IMG/VR virus record: IMGVR_UViG_2534682108_000011
DNA length: 14,561 nt
Reading direction: 5' to 3' (one strand)
From: a virus
Lineage: Duplodnaviria; Heunggongvirae; Uroviricota; Caudoviricetes
The notes beneath the pieces were generated by a model. That model was not told the origin of the DNA. It worked only from the letters and a program-made list of their open reading frames with translations, and did no database searches. The number at the start of each line of letters is the position of its first letter. Within the stretch, counting starts at the first letter, position 1. Positions 610-14,561 of the stretch are shown here, piece by piece. Both the position numbers and the translations under genes were made by a program.

Positions 610-863
610 CCCCATTAACCACAGGCGAATTTCCGCCTTCGGTCATTCCTTAATCATCTGCGTAATCATAATGATTATTCAGCAAGCGCAATTTTGCGCT
701 TTGCTTAAAGTTCAGCGAGTTACCGCGCCGACTTCCTCAAATTGAGGTTTCCGAAAATATCAGCGGGTTAGCGATTAAGCTGACCATTAATTAAACTGCG
801 AAAATGTCGTAGTTGTGAGGGGTGTAGCCAACCCATTTTTGGGCCGTCGGGAATATCAACCAG

Positions 864-1145
864 TTACCGCCGCAACCGCTCCGGCTTCTTCCAGTGGTAC
901 GTTATTTTCTCCTTCTCCCGATACATCTCCACGCGGCGACGGTAGGCCAGCAACTCAAGAACTCTGGTTCGTATGTTGCGCATATCCACGCCATTAAGTT
1001 CTATACCATCACGGCGCATCACCTCAGCAACAACACGCGCATAGTTTTCGGCTGTCACGCTGTCCGGCTGCGTGGCCTGTTCGTCAGCCTGCTGGCTGAT
1101 TCCGGCAACGCGGCGGATTAATCCCGTTATTTCGGCTTCTGTCAT
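864..1145 (-). CDS. Hypothetical protein (93 aa) immediately downstream of terL
   Basis: ORF with ATG at 1145..1143 and an SD-like TGAGGT about 9 nt upstream; starts 14 nt after the terL stop. Charged, non-repetitive composition. No family recognised. Confidence 0.5.
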   Translation of the reverse strand: MTEAEITGLIRRVAGISQQADEQATQPDSVTAENYARVVAEVMRRDGIELNGVDMRNIRTRVLELLAYRRRVEMYREKEKITYHWKKPERLRR

Positions 1146-1158
1146 GCTGCTGACCTCA

Positions 1159-2820
1159 TTACACCCCGCTAAATTCTTCCAGTTTCTGGCGGTGGCTGTC
1201 GCTTATATCAAAAGCAAAATCCTCATGCTCTGCCTGGAATGTACCAAACGCCATCAGCGCCGCCACGCTCGGGTCTATCTTGTTCGGTGATTTTTTCTTG
1301 TTCGGCTTGATATTGGCGTTCGCGTCACTCTGCATCACGACGTTACTCATCGACCAGGACAACACCGGATCGCCACGATGCACAATCACCCTGCGGTTAA
1401 CAAAAACTTCGAACGATTTCGCCGCCGGACTGAATCTGAGGTAGGTTTGCGGGAACGGCTCCACCTCAAAACCTGCCCCCTGTAATTGCGTTCTGAGATG
1501 CGTGGCGTTCCACGTATCAAAGCCCACCAGCCTGATATTAAATTTCTCCGCGTCCTGCATGATGTCATCTCTGATCCGGTCGTAATCAATGCAGTCGCCA
1601 GGCGTTGTGCGTATCCAGCCTGCTTTAGCCCACTGACGATAGATGGCGCGGTTTTTATTGGCGGGGTTCTGTAGCTGAAATTCCGGCAGATAGTGACGGG
1701 AAACCAGCATAATGGTTTTACCGACCGGAAAGGCATAGCACACGCTGGAAATATCGCTGGTTGATGATAAGTCCAGCCCCGCGTAACACTCCTGGCCGTG
1801 TAAATCTTCCTCCGTGAACGTTCCGGCACACTCAGCCCATGCGCCGTTACCCATCCACGGGGTAGCCCCCTGGCACCAGATATTAAATCGCTTTGTCATC
1901 ATCTCCACCCACTGCGACGGAATACCCCGCGCTTTCTGGATGGTTGAGGCCAGTTTTTCACGATCGACGGAAACATCAATATTAGGGTTCGCCTTTATCC
2001 ACATCGCCGGATCATCAACCTCGTTTTCGTCGTCCAGTTCGTAAATCAGTACAAAAATTGAATCGTTAACCTCTTCGCCGTCCAGGATCTGGCAGCAATA
2101 ATCATAGTGCTGTTTACAGGCTGAAACGACGTTGCTGCCTGATGTGGTAATGGCAAATAACAGCCCTTCGGGACGTGCGCCCATCCCCAGCTCAAGCGCG
2201 GAATAAACGCCGTTATCGGGGTGCAAGTGGTATTCGTCCACGATGGAAAGGCTTGGGTTTGTTCCCTCGATGGTTGCCGCTTTTGCTGCCAGCGGCTTTA
2301 ACAGGCTGTTGCTTTTCGGGTGTATCACCTTATGCGCCTGAATATTCACCCGCCTGCGTAACGGTAGGGATAAAAGGCACATCTGACGCGCATCATCAAA
2401 GACGATCCGCGCCTGGTCACGGCTCACCGCTGCGGTGTAGATATCCTGCTGACCGTTCTCCATAATCAGAAACCAGTTAGCCAGAATCGCGGCGGTCGTG
2501 GATTTCGCATTTTTGCGCGGCACTTCGATAAAGGCGCTCGTGTATTTGCGCCGTCCGGTGGCCTTAACCTTAAAGCCGAGGATGCACGCAAAGGCGAACT
2601 GCTGCCACGGCTCCAGCTCAATGGGTCTGCCACGCATCGGTCCTTTTACGTGCGGGCACACCCTGGAAAAGGCAATAAACCGCTCCACAACCTCACGATC
2701 GAACGTGTAAAGGGGGCTTTTAAGGTCCGAAAAGTACCGTTTAACGGCCTGTTTCAGCCGTTTACAGGCCGGAATTTTGCCCGTTTTTACGTCTTCTGCG
2801 TACTTATTCCAGGCGGTCAA
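1159..2820 (-). CDS. terL: Terminase large subunit (553 aa)
   Basis: N-terminus MTAWNKYAEDVKTGKIPACKRL is typical of TerL; ATPase P-loop-like PRKNAKST; length and position after terS. Confidence 0.9.
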   Translation of the reverse strand: MTAWNKYAEDVKTGKIPACKRLKQAVKRYFSDLKSPLYTFDREVVERFIAFSRVCPHVKGPMRGRPIELEPWQQFAFACILGFKVKATGRRKYTSAFIEVPRKNAKSTTAAILANWFLIMENGQQDIYTAAVSRDQARIVFDDARQMCLLSLPLRRRVNIQAHKVIHPKSNSLLKPLAAKAATIEGTNPSLSIVDEYHLHPDNGVYSALELGMGARPEGLLFAITTSGSNVVSACKQHYDYCCQILDGEEVNDSIFVLIYELDDENEVDDPAMWIKANPNIDVSVDREKLASTIQKARGIPSQWVEMMTKRFNIWCQGATPWMGNGAWAECAGTFTEEDLHGQECYAGLDLSSTSDISSVCYAFPVGKTIMLVSRHYLPEFQLQNPANKNRAIYRQWAKAGWIRTTPGDCIDYDRIRDDIMQDAEKFNIRLVGFDTWNATHLRTQLQGAGFEVEPFPQTYLRFSPAAKSFEVFVNRRVIVHRGDPVLSWSMSNVVMQSDANANIKPNKKKSPNKIDPSVAALMAFGTFQAEHEDFAFDISDSHRQKLEEFSGV

Positions 2821-3160
2821 GCTCGTCCTCTTCTTCTGTTTCCGGTGGGTTTTTACGGCGGCTTATCGGGTCAAAACCGAGCAAGGAGGCCATTTTTATC
2901 ATCACCCTTTCAGCGTCTGATTTCGCGCTTAATGCGGGGTTTCTGCTCTCGCCGCCCTGACTGTTAACAATGCTGAACCCGCGCGCCGCAAGGTCTGCGA
3001 CGGCTTTCCGGTAAATGGAGTAGTTGACACAATACAGTTCCAGATTGCTCCAGTCGGCGGGGGTCAGGTCTCCCCGTTCCGCAAGCTGCCGCGATTTTTC
3101 CCGCCACTGCTTCACGGCGATGTCATCCAGGTAGGCGGGGGCTTTCGGTGGTCTTGCCAT
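2804..3160 (-). CDS. terS: Terminase small subunit, P27-family-like (118 aa)
   Basis: N-terminus MARPPKAPAYLDD and acidic C-terminal tail EEEDELDRLE; overlaps the terL start by 17 nt. Confidence 0.75.
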   Translation of the reverse strand: MARPPKAPAYLDDIAVKQWREKSRQLAERGDLTPADWSNLELYCVNYSIYRKAVADLAARGFSIVNSQGGESRNPALSAKSDAERVMIKMASLLGFDPISRRKNPPETEEEDELDRLE

Positions 3161-3282
3161 GCTTATTTTTCGTCAGATTATTTTTCAAAAAATTCCCGTG
3201 CATAAAAATTTGAGGAGGCGTTCGGTGCCCGGCGGGGTCGGGTTTGTCCTGAAAACGCCCCCCACCCCGTCATACAGCCTCA

Positions 3283-3465
3283 TCAGCGATTGCGGAAACA
3301 TTCCATAACCTCGCGGTCACGGTCGGTTAATCGCTTCGCTGTGATGCGTTCTGCGCGTCCTGACGCTTTATCTTTATGCCCTGTTTCCTGTGTCTTCCAT
3401 GCGTCACGCTGCCTTATAAGTCCACGGATAAGGCGGTTTTGTTCCCGCTCATTCATCAGCGTCAT
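3283..3465 (-). CDS. Possible small ORF (60 aa) in the HNH-terS intergenic region
   Basis: MTLMNEREQNRLIRGLIRQRDAWKTQETGHKDKASGRAERITAKRLTDRDREVMECFRNR; protein-like composition but no clear SD; overlaps the HNH stop. Could instead be non-coding cos-region DNA. Confidence 0.25.
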   Translation of the reverse strand: MTLMNEREQNRLIRGLIRQRDAWKTQETGHKDKASGRAERITAKRLTDRDREVMECFRNR

Positions 3466-3889
3466 ACATCCAGTTATTGCGGTTAGCGGCCCGTTCTTCC
3501 TCTTCATGAAATCCACCTGCGGCACGCTTGCTTTTTGTTGCCGGATCAAGCCATTTCGTTTTCTGGTTATGACACGCCTGGCACAATGGTTGATGGTTCC
3601 ATTCGGGCCAGAAGAGAACATCATCACCGCCATTAATCGGGATAATGTGATCCACCACCACGGCGGGCGTATATATCCCCTTCTCAAGGCATCGCACGCA
3701 TAACGGGTTTTTACTCAGATACATGGCGCGGTATTTGTCCCACTGTCTGGAGTACCCACGCGCGCGGCGGTGTCCTCGTCTGGCATCCTCTGCACGCCAT
3801 GCCGCCCGCCTGTGCTCCTCACACTTGCCGGACTTCACGCGCCTGTTACAGCCTGGTTCTGTGCATCGTCTTAATGGTTGCCACGGCAT
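3449..3889 (-). CDS. HNH endonuclease (146 aa), packaging-associated
   Basis: Cys pairs CTEPGC and CVRC, plus VDHIIPINGGDD ... NHQPLCQACHNQKT HNH motif. Sits next to terS/terL as in HK97-like cos phages. Confidence 0.85.
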   Translation of the reverse strand: MPWQPLRRCTEPGCNRRVKSGKCEEHRRAAWRAEDARRGHRRARGYSRQWDKYRAMYLSKNPLCVRCLEKGIYTPAVVVDHIIPINGGDDVLFWPEWNHQPLCQACHNQKTKWLDPATKSKRAAGGFHEEEERAANRNNWMYDADE

Positions 3890-4185
3890 CAGTACACCCC
3901 CACATCACGGTAAGCCGTCCAGAGCGCGCCAATCGTCATGGGTACGCGCGTTTTTGCGTTATCCGCTACCAGCTGGCGATTCTCGTACAGGTGAGCGATA
4001 AACATCATGCAGCCAATCTTTATGGCTGGCGTGAACTCCAGCCCGTCATCAAAGCGCCTGCCTATATGTATCTGGCACGCCTCAAGCGATGCGGCAATGT
4101 ATCCGCTGATTAACTGGTCTTCCTCGTCGCCATCGATGCGGCAATGGAGTTTCACTTCTTCCAGGGTGATAAGTTCTTCTGTCAT
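3889..4185 (-). CDS. Head-tail connector protein, gp6-like (98 aa)
   Basis: MTEELITLEEVKLHCRIDGDEEDQLISGYIAASLE matches the conserved N-terminal pattern of this family; start overlaps the adaptor stop. Confidence 0.7.
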   Translation of the reverse strand: MTEELITLEEVKLHCRIDGDEEDQLISGYIAASLEACQIHIGRRFDDGLEFTPAIKIGCMMFIAHLYENRQLVADNAKTRVPMTIGALWTAYRDVGVY

Positions 4186-4520
4186 TTTTCCGCGCCCTCA
4201 CGACAAAGAATTTCAAGGCGTGTCCTGGCGGCATCCGGCAGCGGCTGCCCGATGATATTCAGTACACGCCCCGCCAGCGGCCCCGTACTGACCTTTATCC
4301 GGCTGGTGGCGTTGATGTCCTTCCGGTACCGTATCCAGATCCTTACGGTACCAATCGCCAGCTCTGCACCCGATGAAATGGCCTCCTTGCTGCTGATCAT
4401 GTTCACGCTTGCCCAGAGTGTGTGACCGTCCTCCCACGTTTCGAGTATTTCGCCGGTTATATCCCTGGTCTGTTTCAGGGTCTGAATCGTTACCCTGTCA
4501 CGCAGTCGCCCTATGTTCAT
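4182..4520 (-). CDS. Head-tail adaptor / head-closure protein (about 112 aa from the MNIGRLRDRVTIQ start)
   Basis: MNIGRLRDRVTIQ is the family-typical start. ATG at 4520 abuts the portal stop (4517); the longer ORF-track start at 4562 would overlap the portal by 46 nt. Confidence 0.7.
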   Translation of the reverse strand: MNIGRLRDRVTIQTLKQTRDITGEILETWEDGHTLWASVNMISSKEAISSGAELAIGTVRIWIRYRKDINATSRIKVSTGPLAGRVLNIIGQPLPDAARTRLEILCREGAEK

Positions 4521-5728
4521 TCCGGTTTTTCTCCCTCGCTGATTTTTACTTCCTGTTTCCATGCCTGGCTGAACTCATCACCACCATCACGCGGGGACAG
4601 CCCTTCACGTTCGCGGGCTTCGTTCGGGCACATAACGCCGGATTTGATGCCGCGTTCATAGGTGGCAAAGCGTTCGCCAGGTGTGGCCCGTAACAGGTCC
4701 GCGCTGTCAAACTCCACCTGATACCGGATACCAGGTACAGGCGAGGCCACCAGCAGGGCGTTTTTTATCTGCTGCTCAAAGTTCGCCAGCCACGGGCGCA
4801 TCGTCATAGTGAGAAATGCGCGGCTTGCCTCGCTGAAATTGCTGTAGGTGCTGTTGCTGTATTCCTGCAAAAAAATCGGCGAGACGTTGAACATTCGGGC
4901 GATGTCTTCAATGGTGAAGCGACGGGAGGCCAGCCATTCAGCATCCTGATTACTCATGCCCAGCTGCTGATAGCTCATACCCCCTTCAAGGATGGGCGTT
5001 TTTCCGGCGTTTCTGGCCCCTTTGTAGCGTTCCAGTGCGGCTAATGCCTGTTTGCCTTTCACGCCGTCCAGCCATTCGCCTGACGTGATAACCCCTGCCG
5101 CCATCATGCCATCACGCATCACGCTCGCGCCGTGGCGTTGTTGGGCCAGCCCAAGCCCCAGCGATTCGCGGCAGATGGTTACAGGTGAGCGCCCCATAAA
5201 ACCGTCATCCGTGGAGTAACGAAGGTGGAGAACCTCCCACGGTAAATAGTTGCGGGTGTTTCCGGTGTAGGCGTCAGTGATGCAGTAGCGCCAGTTGTGT
5301 TCGCCTGTCTGCTCCACGTTCACCGACTGCGGCGGGTAAGGATGTAAAGCCACCGGAAAACCATCACGCCCCCACTGAATCACCGCATAAGCATTACCGT
5401 TTAACAGGCAGTGGCGGATCATCATTCGCTTAAACTGGTAGGGAGTCTGCCACGCGTTCGGGCGCTCGTTGAGGATGTGATCGACCGGATGAGAATCAAG
5501 CCACTCTCGGGCCTCCTTCCCCTTCTCATTGCGTACCAGGTACAGGTAACACGGCATGGTAGCCACCGCCTCAGAGATGACCGTGACGGCGTTCATGACG
5601 GCGGGCAGTGATTCCGCTGTCCCCGATGATACGTACTCACCCGACCCCGTGTTCGATGTGCCGGCCAGCGCCATAAATTCATCCAGCGTCATGCTGCGCT
5701 GCTCTTTTTTTCTTCTGAAAGGCCACAT
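4517..5728 (-). CDS. Portal protein, HK97 family (403 aa)
   Basis: Size, position between protease and adaptor, and overall sequence character of HK97-type portals. Confidence 0.85.
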   Translation of the reverse strand: MWPFRRKKEQRSMTLDEFMALAGTSNTGSGEYVSSGTAESLPAVMNAVTVISEAVATMPCYLYLVRNEKGKEAREWLDSHPVDHILNERPNAWQTPYQFKRMMIRHCLLNGNAYAVIQWGRDGFPVALHPYPPQSVNVEQTGEHNWRYCITDAYTGNTRNYLPWEVLHLRYSTDDGFMGRSPVTICRESLGLGLAQQRHGASVMRDGMMAAGVITSGEWLDGVKGKQALAALERYKGARNAGKTPILEGGMSYQQLGMSNQDAEWLASRRFTIEDIARMFNVSPIFLQEYSNSTYSNFSEASRAFLTMTMRPWLANFEQQIKNALLVASPVPGIRYQVEFDSADLLRATPGERFATYERGIKSGVMCPNEAREREGLSPRDGGDEFSQAWKQEVKISEGEKPE

Positions 5729-5729
5729 A

Positions 5730-6302
5730 TCACACCCCCGCTAAATCCGCCCACCAGCGGCGATTATCCGCACGCGGCATTTTTTCGGGGTGCTGCTCAT
5801 ACAGGGAACGGCGGGCCAGCTCCACGCCGGAATCAGGGTAAGCCGGTACGGATGTAACGGTAATTTCGTACAGTTCCGCCACCAGCACGGTGCGCACGCA
5901 TGGATCTGTTGTGGTATCCCATACATCCTTACGGGAACGAAAGCCAAAGCTCATGCCGGATATATCACCACGTTTAACCAGTTCGATAACGTCACGCCCT
6001 GTGCTGGTATCCGGTGGGGTAAGTTCAAAGCGTAACCCTGTGTCGTCCTCTTCCAGTTTCAGCGTGCCGGAACGGGTGCGCCCCAGTAACATGCTGTGGT
6101 CATGCTCATACAGGCCGCGAACGTCATTACCCGCCGCAAGCCACTCAGTAAACGCCCCCCGCTGGAATTTTTCGTAAAACTCCCCCCATAGCAGTTCTGA
6201 AAGCTTATCCCAGCGAACAACGTAGCCCGTCAGCGTACCGGCTCCGCTGGTGGTGATTTCCGATGACCGGATTTCCATACTCTTCATAATTTTTTCACCC
6301 AT
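5730..6302 (-). CDS. Prohead maturation protease, HK97 family (about 190 aa; true start may be an internal Met)
   Basis: MEIRSSEITTSG ... GYVVRWD ... GMSFGF are typical of HK97 prohead proteases; lies between capsid and portal. Confidence 0.85.
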   Translation of the reverse strand: MGEKIMKSMEIRSSEITTSGAGTLTGYVVRWDKLSELLWGEFYEKFQRGAFTEWLAAGNDVRGLYEHDHSMLLGRTRSGTLKLEEDDTGLRFELTPPDTSTGRDVIELVKRGDISGMSFGFRSRKDVWDTTTDPCVRTVLVAELYEITVTSVPAYPDSGVELARRSLYEQHPEKMPRADNRRWWADLAGV

Positions 6303-6341
6303 AAAACACTAAAGGGGCTTTTAAGCCCCTTCTGTATGCTG

Positions 6342-7499
6342 TTAATCGTCGTCCTGTGGCAGTTCCAGAATCTTGATCGCGTTCGAATCCACCACGCCAC
6401 CGCCTAAATATTTCTGCGTGAAAATTTTGATGAAGCCCGGCTCTGTGAGGTTGTCCGGTCTGGTGCGAACACCTGTTTCGTGATCAACAATGTAGTAACC
6501 GCGTTTGAAGTCACCCAGGGCAATAACGTTATCAGGCATAAACTCCAGATATTCGACCGGAAGGCCCAGCAACGTATCAGGATCACCCGCCTGTAAACGG
6601 TCGCGCCAGATGTAATCACCGTTCGCGTTCTTCACCTTCTGAAGTTTTGCCGCCGTCGTGGAGTTAACCACCCAGACCGCGTTTTTGCGGTATTTTTTAC
6701 GTAATGCAAATTTCAGGTCGATCAGCGGGTCCGCAGATGTCCACGCCAGAGATTCGGAAGGTTTAATTACCTGCAACGTACCAAAATCACGCTCTTTGTC
6801 GTTCTTCTCTGCACGGGGTACGGATAAAAAACCTTTTGCTTTTTTGTCACCGTCGCCCACAACCAGATCGCTTTCTTCGGTTTCCGTGAAGGTGTCGCCA
6901 ATCTCACCCGTCAGCCATGAAAGGATGTCCACATCGGAAAAATCCACGATTTCCTGTGTGGTGCGCGGGTACGCATAGACCGGATACAGCTTAATGCTCA
7001 CCTCGTTAATCTGCGGGGTGCTGGTCTGTTCGCGTGCCTTACCCTCTTCACCGTGGTTAACGGTCGCACCGCCAGCGGAAACAAGCTGCTTAAACTCGTT
7101 GCTGCTGATTTTCTTCACGGTACAGATGCGGCGCATGGTGGATTCATCCGCCAGCATTCGCATGATTTCGGTGTTCAGCTCGGGGATAACGGTATAACCA
7201 CCATCAGCGGGAACGCCTGTACTTAATGCGCGGGTTTCACCTGTCAGGATGTAGTTGCGTAGTTCTGCGGGGTCAGTGGTCTGACTGCTTTTACCTGGCT
7301 TGCTGCGCTCTTCGTCTGCAATGGCTTCAAGGCGGGAAATGTCTTTATCGAGGGATTCAGCTTTAGTGCGTAATTCGTCAAATTTTGCGCCCTCAGCATC
7401 GTTAAGACTGCGGTTTTCTTTTTCCGCGTTCTCCAGCATGTCGCGCATCTGATTTTTAATGGCGGTTTTCTGCTGGCGTAATTCGATTATTCTCGGCAT
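6342..7499 (-). CDS. Major capsid protein, HK97 fold (385 aa) with N-terminal coiled-coil delta/scaffold domain
   Basis: Charged, helical N-terminal ~100 aa followed by a capsid-like domain; adjacent protease. Confidence 0.9.
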   Translation of the reverse strand: MPRIIELRQQKTAIKNQMRDMLENAEKENRSLNDAEGAKFDELRTKAESLDKDISRLEAIADEERSKPGKSSQTTDPAELRNYILTGETRALSTGVPADGGYTVIPELNTEIMRMLADESTMRRICTVKKISSNEFKQLVSAGGATVNHGEEGKAREQTSTPQINEVSIKLYPVYAYPRTTQEIVDFSDVDILSWLTGEIGDTFTETEESDLVVGDGDKKAKGFLSVPRAEKNDKERDFGTLQVIKPSESLAWTSADPLIDLKFALRKKYRKNAVWVVNSTTAAKLQKVKNANGDYIWRDRLQAGDPDTLLGLPVEYLEFMPDNVIALGDFKRGYYIVDHETGVRTRPDNLTEPGFIKIFTQKYLGGGVVDSNAIKILELPQDDD

Positions 7500-7713
7500 A
7501 AAAAAAGTCCTGGGGTTAAGTAAGGAACTCTAGGACGCGGCAAAAACTCAACCGTTTTTCATAAGGAAATCAGCAATCGCACCGATCGTTTTCCCGCCTG
7601 GTAATGAATATTGGCGAGAACATTAACAGGCGGAAAAGTGGCCCCAGCGTCCTGGCACCACGGGCGAGAATAATCATGATTCAGTTCGGGTAAAATATGC
7701 CGATCCGCTCAGT

Positions 7714-7739
7714 GAACAACGTGGAACAACCACGAACAA
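7714..7739 (+). promoter_or_regulatory. Site B: GAACAA x3 at exact 10-bp spacing (7714, 7724, 7734), upstream of the capsid/packaging operon
   Basis: gaacaaCGTGgaacaaCCACgaacaa. On the transcribed minus strand the proximal TTGTTC could act as a -35 with a TATTTT -10 about 16 nt downstream (weak inference). Confidence 0.55.
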
Positions 7740-7752
7740 ATAATTTACAAAA

Positions 7753-7779
7753 AATGACAAAAAGCCGGATTTCTCCGGC
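7753..7779 (-). terminator. Rho-independent terminator after the PerC-like gene
   Basis: Stem GCCGGA/TCCGGC (7764-7779, loop TTTC) followed on the minus-strand RNA by UUUUUGUCAUUUUUU; 7 bp past the stop at 7786. Confidence 0.65.
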
Positions 7780-7785
7780 TGTTGA

Positions 7786-8058
7786 TTAGCTGTCTGGGTA
7801 ATTACGCCATATTTCATCGCTTACACCATCTATACCCATTTCAGCATAAGTGCGATCTACTGCCTTTCTCAGGTCTCCGAAGTTATCCGGCGGCTCCGGT
7901 GGCTTCTGTGCCTTCCTGGAACATTCCAGCCGTCGCATCGTAACCTGATGCCGTTCCTTGTCTGTCTCCACCAGCAGCATGACTTCACCCCATCGCGCCG
8001 CCGCCCTCCGGTAAAAGCCTTTCGCCTCGAGTTCTTCCGCTATGCGGTCATGTACCAT
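7786..8058 (-). CDS. PerC/ANR-family-like transcriptional regulator (about 90 aa)
   Basis: MVHDRIAEELEAKGFYRRAAARWGEVM resembles the conserved N-terminus of PerC-like proteins (from memory). Start at 8058 chosen because of a GAGGGGG SD and no overlap with SSB; the 130-aa ORF-track start is a GTG inside SSB. Confidence 0.5.
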   Translation of the reverse strand: MVHDRIAEELEAKGFYRRAAARWGEVMLLVETDKERHQVTMRRLECSRKAQKPPEPPDNFGDLRKAVDRTYAEMGIDGVSDEIWRNYPDS

Positions 8059-8068
8059 CGCCACCCCC

Positions 8069-8479
8069 TCAGAACGGAATACCGTCACCGTAAGGGTCAT
8101 CGCCTCCCGCTGGTGGCTGATTACCCTGTGTGCCTGTGGTTTTGCGTCTGTTCCCGCCAGGAAGTGCCGCACGGGCACTGATTACGCTGTCTGCAATAAC
8201 CTGATAACCCTGCCGCGTTTCCCCATTCTGTCCGGTCCACTGGCTGACCTGCATCGTGCCGGATACGCTGGCAACGTCGCCTTTTTGATGTTTAGCCAGG
8301 AAGTCGGCCTGCTTACCAAATGCGATGACCGATAGCCATAACGTCGCCTGCCCATCCTGCGCCTGACTACATGGCAGCGATACCGCCATACGCGCCAGCG
8401 TCATCGGTGTACCCTTGCTGGTCTGTTTTACCTGCGGGTCGTCCACCAGCCGCCCGTAAGCTGCTATCTGTGCTGTCAT
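8069..8479 (-). CDS. ssb: Single-stranded DNA-binding protein (136 aa)
   Basis: OB-fold-like core, Gly/Pro/Gln-rich linker and acidic C-terminal tail ending DDPYGDGIPF (compare canonical SSB ending DDDIPF). Confidence 0.8.
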   Translation of the reverse strand: MTAQIAAYGRLVDDPQVKQTSKGTPMTLARMAVSLPCSQAQDGQATLWLSVIAFGKQADFLAKHQKGDVASVSGTMQVSQWTGQNGETRQGYQVIADSVISARAALPGGNRRKTTGTQGNQPPAGGDDPYGDGIPF

Positions 8480-8754
8480 GATTCCACCTCTCCGGTTTTA
8501 ACGTTGATGGTTGTTACCTGTTCCGCTTCGGCAATCTCCCGCTCTGTCAGCGTGGCAAAATTTGCCGCCGTCGTGGTCATGAATGCGCTTATCAGTTCGG
8601 GATGTGCTTTCGCGTATCCTTCCCCCGCGTGGCGGTCTATCGTTCTGATTGCCACCTTTAAAGCGTGCTCTGTCATGTCTAACGCGCGATATTTCGGTTC
8701 TGTTCTGTCTCTGCGTTTTTTGAGTGATTTATTAAATTTCCCTGAAGTGTGCAT
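8476..8754 (-). CDS. Hypothetical protein (92 aa)
   Basis: ORF with a GAGGGGG SD-like sequence upstream; stop overlaps the ssb start. No family recognised. Confidence 0.45.
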   Translation of the reverse strand: MHTSGKFNKSLKKRRDRTEPKYRALDMTEHALKVAIRTIDRHAGEGYAKAHPELISAFMTTTAANFATLTEREIAEAEQVTTINVKTGEVES

Positions 8755-8802
8755 ATTTATTTTTACCCCCTCGTTTAAAAAGTTTTGAGTTGTGCCTCCC
8801 CT

Positions 8803-9028
8803 TGTCTACCTTATCTACCTTAGTGGCCCTCATACCAGTAATGGCGCGGCTTTCAGCGGGGTAGAGTGCTTTTATCCACTATCTACCCCGTGTCTACCTC
8901 CCTGTCTGATTCAGGTAAAATCAGGTAGAGAGGGTAGATAGTGGGTAGACAGTAAAAAAAGGCTATCTACCTAACTTAATGCACTGAATTAAATGTATTT
9001 TTCTTTACTCAGGTAGACAGGGTAGACA
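8803..9028. repeat. Iteron cluster, putative replication origin: at least 10 copies of TCTACC / GGTAGA in both orientations, flanking an A/T-rich segment (about 8950-9010)
   Basis: Copies at 8803-8810, 8812-8819, 8859-8865, 8881-8887, 8891-8898, 8924-8930, 8933-8940, 8944-8951, 8964-8971, 9012-9019, 9021-9028. Ends 15 bp downstream of the primase stop. Confidence 0.7.
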
Positions 9029-9042
9029 GCAATTACAAAAAA

Positions 9043-10797
9043 TTATAAAAACGCGTCGCACTCGTCTGTTGTTATTGCGTTAGTCTGCGTTACTCCCTTA
9101 ACTTTCCGCGTAATATATTCATGTCCGTAAACTTTCGCGGCTGGCTTCATAGCCTTGCCAAAGTCATTTACGTTTAGCGGTTTGCTCCTGCCTGCGTACG
9201 CCATAAACGCCAGATAGACGCGGTAAAGGCTGTTTCTGGTCGTGTACTTCACTGAATCGCCACCGCCGCCCATCATCAGGCCGCGTGCTTCCTCCAGAAA
9301 ATTCAGGAACTGGCAAAACTCAATAACCGGATCCGTCTGTTGCTTTATTGCCAGAGCTTCATCACCGTCACGCTGTTCCAGTAGTAAAGCCCGTGCCTTC
9401 TCAGGGTCGGTAAAGTTCGCCAGCAATCGGCGGATAATGACAGGGATTTCAGCCGCGATCTTTTCCGGTAGCTCCCTGTCTTTTTCGGCCTCACTGACGA
9501 TATTGTCGAAACGGAAAATCACGCGACGACGTGCCACACCTCCGGCCCGTTCGGTGAATATCATCGGGTTATTGTTGGTCGCCAGCACCACCGCCCTGAT
9601 TACCGCCGTGAAACGCTTTTCGTATTTCGGGTTAATTTCCACGGGGTCACCGCCCGTGATTTTCTTGATGCCCGTTCCTTCGCCTGTATATTTCGGCTGG
9701 TCAGCCAGGACGATAAGACGACTCCCGACAACCTGCGCACGTCCACCAGCATCATCAAGCGATGTCATTTCAGCGCTTACCGTGTTCTGTTTCCCTGCCA
9801 GAAGGCTGGCTATGTGTGTGAATGTACTTTTACCGCTCCCGCCGTCTCCGGTGGCCTCAATAAACATCTGCCAGTCGTACCGGTTCGCCATAATCATGTA
9901 CAGCGCGGCACATATACGCATCATCTTGCGCGGGTCTTTTCCGGCTGCGTGCTCAAGCCATTTATGAAAGTTTGGCGCGTTATCGCGGATGTTCTCCCCT
10001 GGTGCTGGTGGCGTGTACTCAATGCCGTTGTGCGTGGTGATCCAGTTCTCCGGCGTGTGCGGGGAAAATTCCCCCGTTTTCAGGTCAAGCGCACCATTGG
10101 CGAACGGCAACAAATCGCCGGACGGCTCGCCCATTGGTTCGGCAATAACTTTTAACGCTTCCACGGCGTTATTGATTACGCGCTTGCTGAAAGTGGCCCT
10201 GTGCTCTGAATAGATCGCCACCATTTCGCGGCTAAGTTCCATTGTGCTGACCGGACACCATACCCCGCCGCGCCATACGTGAACGATTTCACTTTCAGGA
10301 TGTACGCAAACGCCATCAAAGCGATCGGCAAGCAGCTGCGCGCGCTCACTGTCCGCCATCTGCGAAAGTTGCGCCTTTTGCTTTACCGGAAGCTCAATGA
10401 CCAGACCATCAGAAAGATTCTGGCGCTCACGGGCCAGATATTCGCGCCAGTTCTCCACCTTCTGACCGTGCATACCATCAGGGTAAAAATTTGCATCCTG
10501 TACGCCTGCCGCCGCCAGCTTCTGACCAATCGCCTTTATCATTACTGGCGCAAGATATCCGGCCCTGAATATGCGCACGGATTTTCTGCCTTCCGGCACA
10601 ATTTGCAGCTTATCCAGTTCGGATAACTGCTGCTCCCCAAGCCACACAGGAGGCTCATTATCTCCGGCCATACGCGCGTCATGTTCCTGCCATTGTTTTG
10701 CGTGTGACCAGGCATCACTACCCGCAAAAATAATGACTTCTGTTTCTTTGTGTTTTATGCCGCGTGACTGCTGTTTTACGTTCGGTGCCAGTTTCAT
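9043..10797 (-). CDS. Replication initiator: DNA primase with C-terminal P-loop NTPase/helicase domain (584 aa)
   Basis: Walker A GDGGSGKST in the C-terminal half; size and layout resemble P4-alpha-family primase-helicases; origin iterons immediately downstream. Confidence 0.8.
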   Translation of the reverse strand: MKLAPNVKQQSRGIKHKETEVIIFAGSDAWSHAKQWQEHDARMAGDNEPPVWLGEQQLSELDKLQIVPEGRKSVRIFRAGYLAPVMIKAIGQKLAAAGVQDANFYPDGMHGQKVENWREYLARERQNLSDGLVIELPVKQKAQLSQMADSERAQLLADRFDGVCVHPESEIVHVWRGGVWCPVSTMELSREMVAIYSEHRATFSKRVINNAVEALKVIAEPMGEPSGDLLPFANGALDLKTGEFSPHTPENWITTHNGIEYTPPAPGENIRDNAPNFHKWLEHAAGKDPRKMMRICAALYMIMANRYDWQMFIEATGDGGSGKSTFTHIASLLAGKQNTVSAEMTSLDDAGGRAQVVGSRLIVLADQPKYTGEGTGIKKITGGDPVEINPKYEKRFTAVIRAVVLATNNNPMIFTERAGGVARRRVIFRFDNIVSEAEKDRELPEKIAAEIPVIIRRLLANFTDPEKARALLLEQRDGDEALAIKQQTDPVIEFCQFLNFLEEARGLMMGGGGDSVKYTTRNSLYRVYLAFMAYAGRSKPLNVNDFGKAMKPAAKVYGHEYITRKVKGVTQTNAITTDECDAFL

Positions 10798-12781: not shown

Positions 12782-12970
12782 TTAATGAACTGCCTTGCAG
12801 CTATCCTTCCAGGCCAGAACCTCGGATAAAGACCAGCCAACGGAACGACCGCCAAGTTTACGACGTGATGGGAATTGTCCGGCCTTTTCCAGGCGGTAGC
12901 GGCATGAGCGGCTAAGGCCTGTTAGCTTTTCGCATTCTTTTTCACGTATAAACCGATCAGTGCTTAACAC
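12782..12970 (-). CDS. alpA: AlpA-family regulator / excisionase-like protein (62 aa, GTG start)
   Basis: LTGLSRSCRYRLEKAGQFPSRRKLGGRSVGWSLSEVLAW is the AlpA/Vis/TorI winged-helix signature; SD AAGGGG 5 nt upstream of GTG at 12970. Confidence 0.85.
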   Translation of the reverse strand: MLSTDRFIREKECEKLTGLSRSCRYRLEKAGQFPSRRKLGGRSVGWSLSEVLAWKDSCKAVH

Positions 12971-13251: not shown

Positions 13252-13297
13252 TTGTTCGTAGTTGTTCCGCATTGTTGCTCATTGTTGCACGTTGTAT
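13252..13297 (+). promoter_or_regulatory. Site C: five hexamers TTGTTC, TTGTTC, TTGTTG, TTGTTG, TTGTAT at exact 10-bp spacing (13252, 13262, 13272, 13282, 13292)
   Basis: Read directly; reverse complement of the GAACAA motif at sites A and B; between the int stop (13344) and alpA. Confidence 0.55.
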
Positions 13298-13343: not shown

Positions 13344-14561
13344 TTATTTTCTTCTGGCTACGGGTAGCGTGGTTACGTTTTCATGTGTTCCCGCCAGTAT
13401 CCCTAACCGCTCCGTCCACATATCCAGCGCATTGCGTTTAGCATCCAGATAACGGGAATGATTATAAACTCGCTGCATTCCTGGCATCTGGTGGCCTGTA
13501 AGCTGCTCCACGACATGCGGATCAACGCCTAAATCGTTCAGCATGGTTGTAAAGGTGCGCCGGATGTCATGCAGTGACCAGTGAGGATGATTAAGCCTCC
13601 TGTGCGCTAATCTTCCATACTGCGATACGCTGGCCTCCTGTTTCACTGCCCCCAGCAATAAGCCCGTGTGCCTGTTCTGCTCCACCAGCTGCGTGACGAA
13701 CGGCAGGATCGCTTCCGGTATGGGCCGGAATATTGCGACCTTCGTTTTGCTGTGCTCCTTCGGAACGGTCCATAGCATTTCCGTAAAATCCCACTCCCCG
13801 ATCTCCGATAACCTCAGTTCTACCGTTCTGGCTCCGAAGACAATCAGGAGGCGGATTAACGCGACGTAGTAAGGGGAAAATATTTTTTTATCCAGCGCCT
13901 GCAATAACTCGCCCAGTTCTTTGGTGCTTAAGACACGTTCGCTTATATCCGGTTTTTTCCCAACGTCCGCCACGTTCAGATCGTCCAGAACGTTGCTGAT
14001 TGCATAGCGCCGCCTACGGCAGAACTTAAGCGCCTGTTTGCACGCCTGTAGCACGAATCCGGCAGTAACAGGCGTTCGCTTTGCCACCTGGTCAAAACAG
14101 GCCAGCCAGTGCCGTAGCTCGCATTTATCTAGCGGCATAGCACCAATCTGCTGTATTACGTGATTATTAAGTCGCCTTTTCAGGGCGATATAATCCACGC
14201 GGTTTTCCTTTACGTAATACTCAAGCCAGTAGGTGAGCGCATCGCCAACCGTTACGGGCTTTAACGCTTCCTGTACGGTGTAATTCATCTCATGACGTGG
14301 ATTTTTCCCCTCAGCCAGCCATGCGCGGCACTGGGCGGCTTTTTCCCTGGCTGCTTTCAGACTCAGATCAGGATAATTTCCCAGCTTAATACGTTCCGGT
14401 CGTGTCTCTCTTCCCGTTCCTGCCCTGTAAGTGAAATACCAGGTTAATTTCCCTGATGTTAAATATTTCACGCTCAGATTTCCGCCATCGCTATAAAACG
14501 TGTTTTTCTCCGCTGGCTTACCATGAAGTTTCCTTAGCAATGTGTCGCTCAGTTTGTTCAT
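13344..14561 (-). CDS. int: Tyrosine site-specific integrase, P4-like (405 aa), start codon at the window edge
   Basis: N-terminal arm-binding-type domain (KLSDTLLRKLHGKPAEKNTFYSDGGNLSVKYLTSGKLTWYFTYR), C-terminal catalytic region with HDIRRTFTT and conserved His/Tyr context. Confidence 0.9.
   Translation of the reverse strand: MNKLSDTLLRKLHGKPAEKNTFYSDGGNLSVKYLTSGKLTWYFTYRAGTGRETRPERIKLGNYPDLSLKAAREKAAQCRAWLAEGKNPRHEMNYTVQEALKPVTVGDALTYWLEYYVKENRVDYIALKRRLNNHVIQQIGAMPLDKCELRHWLACFDQVAKRTPVTAGFVLQACKQALKFCRRRRYAISNVLDDLNVADVGKKPDISERVLSTKELGELLQALDKKIFSPYYVALIRLLIVFGARTVELRLSEIGEWDFTEMLWTVPKEHSKTKVAIFRPIPEAILPFVTQLVEQNRHTGLLLGAVKQEASVSQYGRLAHRRLNHPHWSLHDIRRTFTTMLNDLGVDPHVVEQLTGHQMPGMQRVYNHSRYLDAKRNALDMWTERLGILAGTHENVTTLPVARRK

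Follow-up and report, generated by a model that had tools for sequence, protein, structure and literature searches.

The packaging operon of a probable EcCIEDL933-type satellite island has the capsid-first gene order of phage-inducible chromosomal islands that form capsids

EcCIEDL933, the prototype of those phage-inducible chromosomal islands that are capsid-forming (cf-PICIs), makes its own capsids and is transferred at high frequency; HK106 is its experimentally validated helper phage. The T=4 capsid of this island is available as PDB 9GYI, and in the packaging module of cf-PICIs it is the genes for adaptor and connector that can be swapped (bioRxiv 10.1101/2025.02.11.637232). The module comprises nine genes, one of them hypothetical (bioRxiv 10.1101/2025.02.11.637232; bioRxiv 10.1101/2022.09.08.507074). 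Mutation of every module gene of EcCIEDL933 abolished transfer, or severely reduced it in the case of one hypothetical gene, and left the helper unaffected; the gene order is conserved in proteobacterial cf-PICIs, Firmicute cf-PICI lineages have other orders (portal-protease-capsid first or hnh-terS-terL first), and the modules of satellite and helper differ in their genetic organization (Alqurainy et al., bioRxiv 10.1101/2022.09.08.507074). The same gene order, together with a size of ∼ 10–18 kb (criterion i), serves to search for cf-PICIs (bioRxiv 10.1101/2025.02.11.637232). Promoters or transcription of the operon find no mention in these cf-PICI papers. Here we describe a packaging operon of this kind in a 14,561-nucleotide stretch of DNA recorded as viral (IMG/VR record IMGVR_UViG_2534682108_000011), the whole of which we call the window. 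Its unusual gene order is real, but it is an already published hallmark of the cf-PICI family.

Unless stated otherwise, all features given below in window coordinates lie on the minus strand. In the direction of transcription the module opens with a major capsid protein of HK97 fold (6342–7499; Phage_capsid PF05065, E 1.6e-61), followed by a prohead serine protease (5730–6302; Peptidase_S78 PF04586, E 7.5e-48) and a portal (4517–5728; Phage_portal PF04860, E 9e-91) that has relatives with solved portal structures. Next come the head-closure protein Hc1 (4182–4520; Phage_HCP PF05521, E 5e-23), which resembles HK97 gp7 and is the ‘adaptor’ of the cf-PICI papers, and the gp6-like head–tail adaptor Ad1 (3889–4185; Phage_connect_1 PF05135, E 1.9e-11), their ‘connector’. 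The remaining genes encode an HNH endonuclease, the packaging cofactor of HK97-type terminases (3449–3889; PF01844, E 1.7e-8), a 60-residue open reading frame annotated by RefSeq (orf60, 3283–3465), the small terminase TerS of the P27 family (2804–3160; Terminase_4 PF05119, E 1.3e-23) and the large terminase TerL (1159–2820; TerL_ATPase PF03354 and TerL_nuclease PF20441), which has a TTG start codon. A conserved gap that resembles a cos site separates orf60 from TerS. A sequence-only reading of the window had proposed these gene identities and their order, and the open reading frames and Pfam searches bore it out for every family, the capsid, portal and protease assignments included. The interval given there for the operon (2804–7499) left out TerL, which the same reading had listed, and orf60 was overlooked.

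The Pfam matches span nearly the whole models, the exception being the adaptor (positions 2–82 of 101), and on this ground the module genes are judged intact. The sequence-only reading had called them both intact and tightly coupled; the first part holds and the second holds for most junctions, which overlap or abut. The portal/Hc, Hc/Ad, Ad/HNH and HNH/orf60 junctions overlap by 4, 4, 1 and 17 bases, so that overlaps of 1–17 nt run from portal through orf60, TerS/TerL likewise overlap by 17, and protease/portal are one base apart. Two wider gaps break the series, one of 39 nt 3′ of the capsid gene, which holds a hairpin, and the cos-like gap of 122 nt between orf60 and TerS. By tblastn, orf60 is present in all but one of the Escherichia coli/Shigella-clade loci spanning the position and also in Klebsiella and Erwinia; it was not detected by this search in Citrobacter or Gilliamella. 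It is probably the ninth module gene, and we equate it, with the same reservation, with the hypothetical gene of the papers.

The capsid protein is identical to PDB 9GYI at 382 of 385 positions (99.2%), the differences being T45A, A117T and A155T (window residue first). The comparison with EcCIEDL933 was made by the capsid alone; that island measures 15.4–15.5 kb against ∼ 14.6 kb here, and its flanking accessory genes and attachment site may differ. The window island is inserted in tqsA. The window matches one complete E. coli chromosome (NZ_CP062876) at near-100% identity, and at least 80% of it is present in 155 complete E. coli genomes. RefSeq annotates the island in NZ_CP062876 as flanked by two tqsA fragments (locus positions ∼ 4145–18747), so that at ∼ 14.6 kb it falls within the size range used for cf-PICIs. 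Nearly the whole window is one minus-strand element, in which Pfam supports all the module genes and also an integrase, AlpA, a primase, a single-stranded DNA-binding protein (SSB) and PerC; window reading frames without a Pfam match are small hypothetical proteins. All sequence-level features by which cf-PICIs are recognized are thus found: integrase, regulation and replication modules (int, AlpA, primase, SSB), a packaging module of eight genes, all identified by Pfam and in exactly the listed order, and the absence of lysis genes and of a full tail module, RefSeq listing neither tail nor lysis genes anywhere in the island. We are therefore confident that the window carries the packaging operon of an EcCIEDL933-type cf-PICI integrated in tqsA. 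By analogy, at 99.2% capsid identity, the island would share with EcCIEDL933 its helper-dependent induction via AlpA, its small capsids of its own making and its need for helper tails. The sequence-only reading had called the module apparently functional, and this agrees both with the intact genes and with the transfer of the near-identical EcCIEDL933, in which the module genes are needed.

Two other kinds of element have related head genes. An HK97-like temperate phage, for which HK106 served as comparison, has tail and lysis genes and a genome of ∼ 40 kb, neither of which applies to this ∼ 14.6 kb element, and its order TerS-TerL-portal-protease-capsid-Ad-Hc is not that of the window. The gene transfer agent (GTA) of Rhodobacter capsulatus, RcGTA, provides the closest solved capsid structure after 9GYI (E 7.6e-47) and has a small head too. 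It has the canonical gene order and its own tails, is not known to have an integrase, AlpA, a primase or a cos site, and packages random host DNA. GTAs are defined by the lack of autonomous integration and replication functions and of a specific packaging site; integrase, AlpA, primase and a cos-like region are all present here.

The minus-strand order of the module is capsid-protease-portal-Hc-Ad-HNH-orf60-cos-like gap-TerS-TerL. In HK97, HK106, YeP1 and VW-6S it is TerS, TerL, portal, protease, capsid, Ad (gp6-like), Hc (gp7-like), and in HK106 the HNH gene lies at the far right end, adjoining cos in the circular form. The window departs from the HK97 order at two places: portal-protease-capsid has become capsid-protease-portal and Ad-Hc has become Hc-Ad. 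The stretch HNH-(cos)-TerS-TerL is the same as in HK97 and HK106 read across cos. It had been proposed from the sequence that the operon runs in the reverse of the canonical order. This is overstated, because only the head block and the connector pair are internally reversed and there is no strand inversion; a full reverse would read Hc, Ad, capsid, protease, portal, TerL, TerS, which the window does not. The observation behind that proposal is confirmed and its interpretation as a whole is partly supported. An origin of this order by one inversion is rejected, since all genes are co-directional and the TerS-TerL order is kept. By our own count, no fewer than three block transpositions would be required to produce the order; the alternative is that it was put together from separate pieces.

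The HK97-like phages (HK97, HK106, VW-6S and YeP1) share with the window the Pfam families of every module protein as well as the HNH-cos-TerS-TerL adjacency, but they differ in having tail genes after Hc, T=7 capsids and genomes of 37–41 kb. For capsid, portal and TerL the identity to these phages is 26–37% or undetectable: by capsid the closest true phages are Pseudomonas VW-6S (37%) and Yersinia YeP1 (33%), portal and TerL are ∼ 26–27% identical to those of HK97 and HK106, and the capsid gave no tblastn match to either of the latter. The HNH protein is 41% identical to that of HK106 over 81 residues. The highest value of any module protein belongs to Hc, whose identity to the gp7 proteins of HK97 and HK106 is 49–50% along its entire length. 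That the tail-facing Hc is the most helper-like protein fits the expectation for an element that takes only tails.

Synteny was examined by tblastn of the window proteins against 74 loci from genome, viral and phage collections, and the count was confined to loci that have three or more module genes and whose capsid reaches 60% identity (n = 51). Fifty of them have the window order and none has the canonical one; the sole exception, vB_KppS-Ant, has this very circle but is opened at cos. The 51 loci come from Escherichia, Shigella, Klebsiella, Citrobacter, Erwinia, Gilliamella and Rosenbergiella, and gene tables of relatives from Morganella, Xenorhabdus, Salmonella and Pasteurella give the window order too, so that order and gene content alike recur in roughly a dozen genera, with capsid identity as low as 58% (Morganella, Xenorhabdus and Erwinia lack Hc). 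The earlier suggestion that the arrangement is a family hallmark is therefore both published and in agreement with our synteny check. Other proteobacterial cf-PICIs (KpCIDSM30104 and EcCIGN02175, known from the literature; the records vB_KppS-Ant, LR881103, and Pasteurella Pmp7 and Pmp8) have the identical module order with a cos-like region between HNH/orf60 and TerS, as in the window, but differ from it in protein sequence (58–82% identity) and in connector genes that are swapped or an Hc that is absent. The phages HK97, HK106, YeP1 and VW-6S have the canonical order, as do seven distant loci that the scans yielded. Eleven loci had three or more module genes but a capsid of no more than 33% identity, and eight of them are canonical. 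The other three are Bartonella loci (L013, L015 and L071) with the order portal-capsid-HNH-TerS-TerL, which is the canonical circle opened elsewhere; with head genes first and a canonical internal order, they may be another satellite or GTA-like lineage. In one IMG/VR relative (L056:10557–14579), capsid-protease-portal is followed by a 3′ fragment of the capsid gene and by protease-portal again; either the operon contains a tandem duplication here or the sequence was misassembled.

Whether the order itself matters is a separate question. It may be a frozen accident of the founder, devoid of functional meaning, rather than the outcome of selection for stoichiometry or regulation, and we rate the accident at only slightly below an even chance. 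Firmicute cf-PICIs work with other orders and the Bartonella loci have yet another, and the lifestyle thus does not depend on one particular order. On the other hand, the order follows decreasing copy number per particle, and order, post-capsid hairpin and leader have been kept over deep divergence whereas flanking and connector genes are swapped freely.

The gap between orf60 and TerS (3161–3282) is a conserved non-coding element. It is kept across genera, with a GGGGTGGGGG motif and CTCAAATTTTTA(T/C)GC, and is probably the cos site. The virion-derived linear record of vB_KppS-Ant (L002, LR881103) starts 22 nt before TerS and ends just past the orf60 homologue; its packaged genome therefore keeps TerS-TerL at the left and HNH at the right, as in HK97. 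A copy in Shigella flexneri (L005:14214–14285) has lost part of the cos-like region and the first TerS codons by deletion and is probably immobile. In loci L041 and L049 the TerL match is only partial and begins ∼ 600 nt downstream of TerS.

Since the gene order is known, the sole residual interest lies in the regulatory leader of the operon, where the conserved motif, the leader and the post-capsid hairpin are concrete targets. The order raises the question of how the operon is switched on and how one unit yields ∼ 240 capsid per 12 portal subunits. Just after the perC stop codon, a scan found an intrinsic-terminator-like hairpin (7763–7780) with a 7-bp stem, five GC pairs and a TTTTTGTCATT tail, as the sequence-only reading had expected in front of the operon. 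It may isolate the packaging operon from upstream transcription, and in relative L063 a different terminator-like hairpin with a T-run lies at about the same place (alignment A1, by eye). The most conserved intergenic element follows, a motif TTTGTAAATTATTTGT (7736–7751) that is unique in the window. In the form TTTGTAAAT(TATTTGT) it lies 217–257 nt upstream of the capsid ATG in all 10 genera examined, and its core is invariant in alignments A1 and A2. We regard it as a candidate promoter or regulator site. TAAATT within the motif as a −10 element is weakened as a possibility, since its last base varies (G in Morganella, A in Xenorhabdus). In the helper HK106 the motif gave two hits with three mismatches each, which is chance level, so that a hijacked binding site for the helper Q protein is unsupported; the PR′ promoter of HK106 shares only the hexamer TAAATT with the motif.

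After the motif come three TTGTTC repeats (GAACAA on the plus strand; 7714–7739) at 7714, 7724 and 7734, an array with a 10-bp period that had already been noticed from the sequence and that probably binds a protein. In the E. coli clade these repeats stand at −240, −230 and −220, several loci keeping two of the three copies; other genera have different sequences at this position, some with a phased TTTACYC/CTTACCC pair. The 12 occurrences of GAACAA/TTGTTC in the window are not above chance (8.8 expected). A second TTGTTC pair, with the same 10-bp spacing and in opposite orientation, lies at 13252–13267 between the integrase and alpA genes, and together with the array it might form a shared regulator or recombination-directionality site. 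Six other islands showed no equivalent of such matching phased repeats in the alpA/int region and the capsid leader, and a link of the repeats to AlpA is speculation.

The capsid mRNA is predicted to begin with a structured 5′ leader of two hairpins, P1 (7638–7661) and P2 (7590–7637), whose folds have z scores of −4.1 and −5.9. RNAalifold analysis found that 11 of 14 leader pairs change on both sides, and 90% of leader cells are paired compared with 69% in shuffles and 32–47% with slid partners; this covariation rests on few independent lineages. The vB_KppS-Ant record shares both the TTTGTAAAT motif and the leader hairpins with the window. Scanned in full against Rfam with a cutoff of E 1, the window gave nothing but a chance match to an miRNA, and the leader can thus be placed in no described RNA family. 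Single-sequence folds suggested that the 5′ leader might pair with the start of the capsid gene; duplex energies were better than those of shuffles in only a minority of the lineages, and Gilliamella lacks the pairing. At position 7531 the window has an A where aligned E. coli-clade relatives have a G (GCGTCCTAGAG versus GCGTCCTGGAG), which removes one pair of a predicted stem over the capsid Shine-Dalgarno sequence (CCAGGAC).

The position of the terminator relative to the motif varies. It is just upstream of the motif, not downstream, in the E. coli clade, whereas Klebsiella, Morganella and Xenorhabdus have a terminator-like hairpin ∼ 35 nt after the motif (L002:12095–12115, L077:8803–8823 and L078:8807–8827), with a different stem in each. 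By eye, the post-motif hairpin is also present in Rosenbergiella, Citrobacter and Erwinia and not in Gilliamella or the Salmonella-type leader.

Nine nucleotides after the capsid stop codon lies a GC-rich hairpin with a 9-bp stem (6311–6332), a candidate partial terminator or mRNA stabilizer. A GGGGC/GCCCC hairpin occupies this position in nine of 10 genera, and Morganella has a different stem. The hairpin bears on the possibility of separate transcripts: the capsid gene could be its own unit, ended at 6332–6311, with protease-to-TerL and/or TerS-TerL transcribed from internal promoters. The strength and conservation of the stem and the 122-nt non-coding gap before TerS would suit such an arrangement. 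Yet the capsid–protease gap measures only 39 nt, positions 700–8900 contain no promoter-like minus-strand site, the hairpin has a broken T-tail (TTTAGTGTTTTAT), the conservation of the 122-nt gap is that of a cos-like element, and HK97 and HK106 carry similar annotated terminators within the late-gene region, namely after their capsid genes. Lambdoid phage late genes form one operon that is read through such terminators. The post-capsid hairpin must be read through in any single transcript, because all eight downstream genes are essential. On balance we think separate units unlikely and prefer a single operon.

A single operon headed by the capsid gene suggests how expression might be arranged. 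Overexpression of alpA alone drives EcCIEDL933 production, and in Pseudomonas, AlpA acts in the manner of Q as a factor for processive antitermination, which is loaded at the promoter and lets terminators 26–54 nt downstream be bypassed. As a tentative and rather doubtful proposal, the order with the capsid first might belong to an antitermination-based expression design, as yet undescribed and common to proteobacterial cf-PICIs, that would be made up of the TTTGTAAAT site, a terminator before (E. coli clade) or after (most other genera sampled) this site, the covarying two-hairpin leader and the post-capsid hairpin. Such a design would need processive antitermination, with the capsid over-produced and the eight downstream genes expressed at a lower level and after induction only. 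One candidate antiterminator is the island AlpA, in analogy to the Pseudomonas protein, and another is the helper Q protein. That a capsid gene placed first, ahead of a leaky terminator, sets the ∼ 240:12 capsid-to-portal ratio is offered as a hypothesis only.

Taken together, we suggest that a helper phage would induce the island through the island's AlpA, whereupon the operon would be transcribed as one unit from ∼ 7690–7750 through the structured leader, with partial read-through of the post-capsid hairpin and the most abundant product first. Its products would make the island's own small T=4 capsids of HK97 fold together with the protease, the portal and the head-closure and adaptor proteins, after which HNH, TerS and TerL would cut at the island's own cos and package island DNA, and tails alone would be taken from the helper. 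The gene identities, their order and its conservation, and the near-identity of the capsid come from the present analysis; function, T=4 capsids, tail theft and AlpA dependence come from the literature on the near-identical EcCIEDL933. Several points weigh against this model. The single transcript is a prediction from the sequence, and the post-capsid hairpin could be an efficient terminator, which would argue against it. A consensus scan of 700–8900 found no sigma-70-like promoter on the minus strand; the promoter near 7690 of the sequence-only reading (TTGTTC-16-TATTTT) proved to be a weak match (7 of 12, by eye) found in the E. coli clade only. The functional reading extends to this island what is known of a relative with which the capsid (99% identical) was compared directly, and, since many of the 51 syntenic loci are near-identical E. 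coli copies, the independent lineages number roughly a dozen genera.

That the locus is instead the decaying, scrambled remnant of an HK97-like prophage, its order the product of deletion and rearrangement, is hardly credible: tail and lysis genes are absent, the capsid family bears the legacy name ‘prophage CP-933C’ (which we take to be the EDL933 element, once labelled a cryptic prophage) and copies do decay (the Shigella L005 loss of cos/TerS and the integrase of NZ_CP062876, annotated as frameshifted), but the nine module genes are intact with mostly overlapping or abutting junctions, the same order and content recur in about a dozen genera to 58% capsid identity, and the near-identical EcCIEDL933 forms capsids and is transferred at high frequency.

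Recovery of the diagnostic cf-PICI gene order from the raw sequence is a rediscovery and adds little that is new as a finding. The order is of practical use, however, as together with the absence of tail genes it separates cf-PICIs from degraded prophages, and for several cf-PICIs the deposited record or annotation still speaks of a phage or cryptic prophage (vB_KppS-Ant, Pmp7 and Pmp8, and the legacy CP-933C name). Elements with the cf-PICI order that are deposited as phages include L002 (LR881103), L080 (OR544139) and L081 (PQ569648). The gene after TerL in vB_KppS-Ant is annotated as a tape-measure protein, an annotation that may be wrong, and the last ∼ 16 kb of the 106-kb record of Klebsiella phage P12620-1 consist of cf-PICI-like genes.

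The remainder of the window holds the other modules of the island. The tyrosine integrase (13344–14561) is an uninterrupted open reading frame of 405 residues whose ATG is the last codon of the window; its counterpart in NZ_CP062876 (L001:17344–18572) is marked as frameshifted by RefSeq, and the window and this locus differ in length by one base. The AlpA-family regulator (12782–12970; PF05930, E 5e-18) is followed by a D5-type primase (9043–10797), alongside which a DUF4222 protein is named, the SSB (8069–8479) and, directly upstream of the operon terminator, a PerC-family protein (7786–8058). LEE1 promoter fusions are reported to be unaffected by the PerC-like proteins of EcCIEDL933 and EcCICFT073, and the PerC-like protein of EcCIMP1 to repress LEE. 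At the other end, a 93-residue open reading frame (864–1145) follows TerL. Just downstream of the primase gene, iteron-like TCTACC/GGTAGA repeats (∼ 8819–9026) probably mark the replication origin; relatives have TTCACC repeats there.

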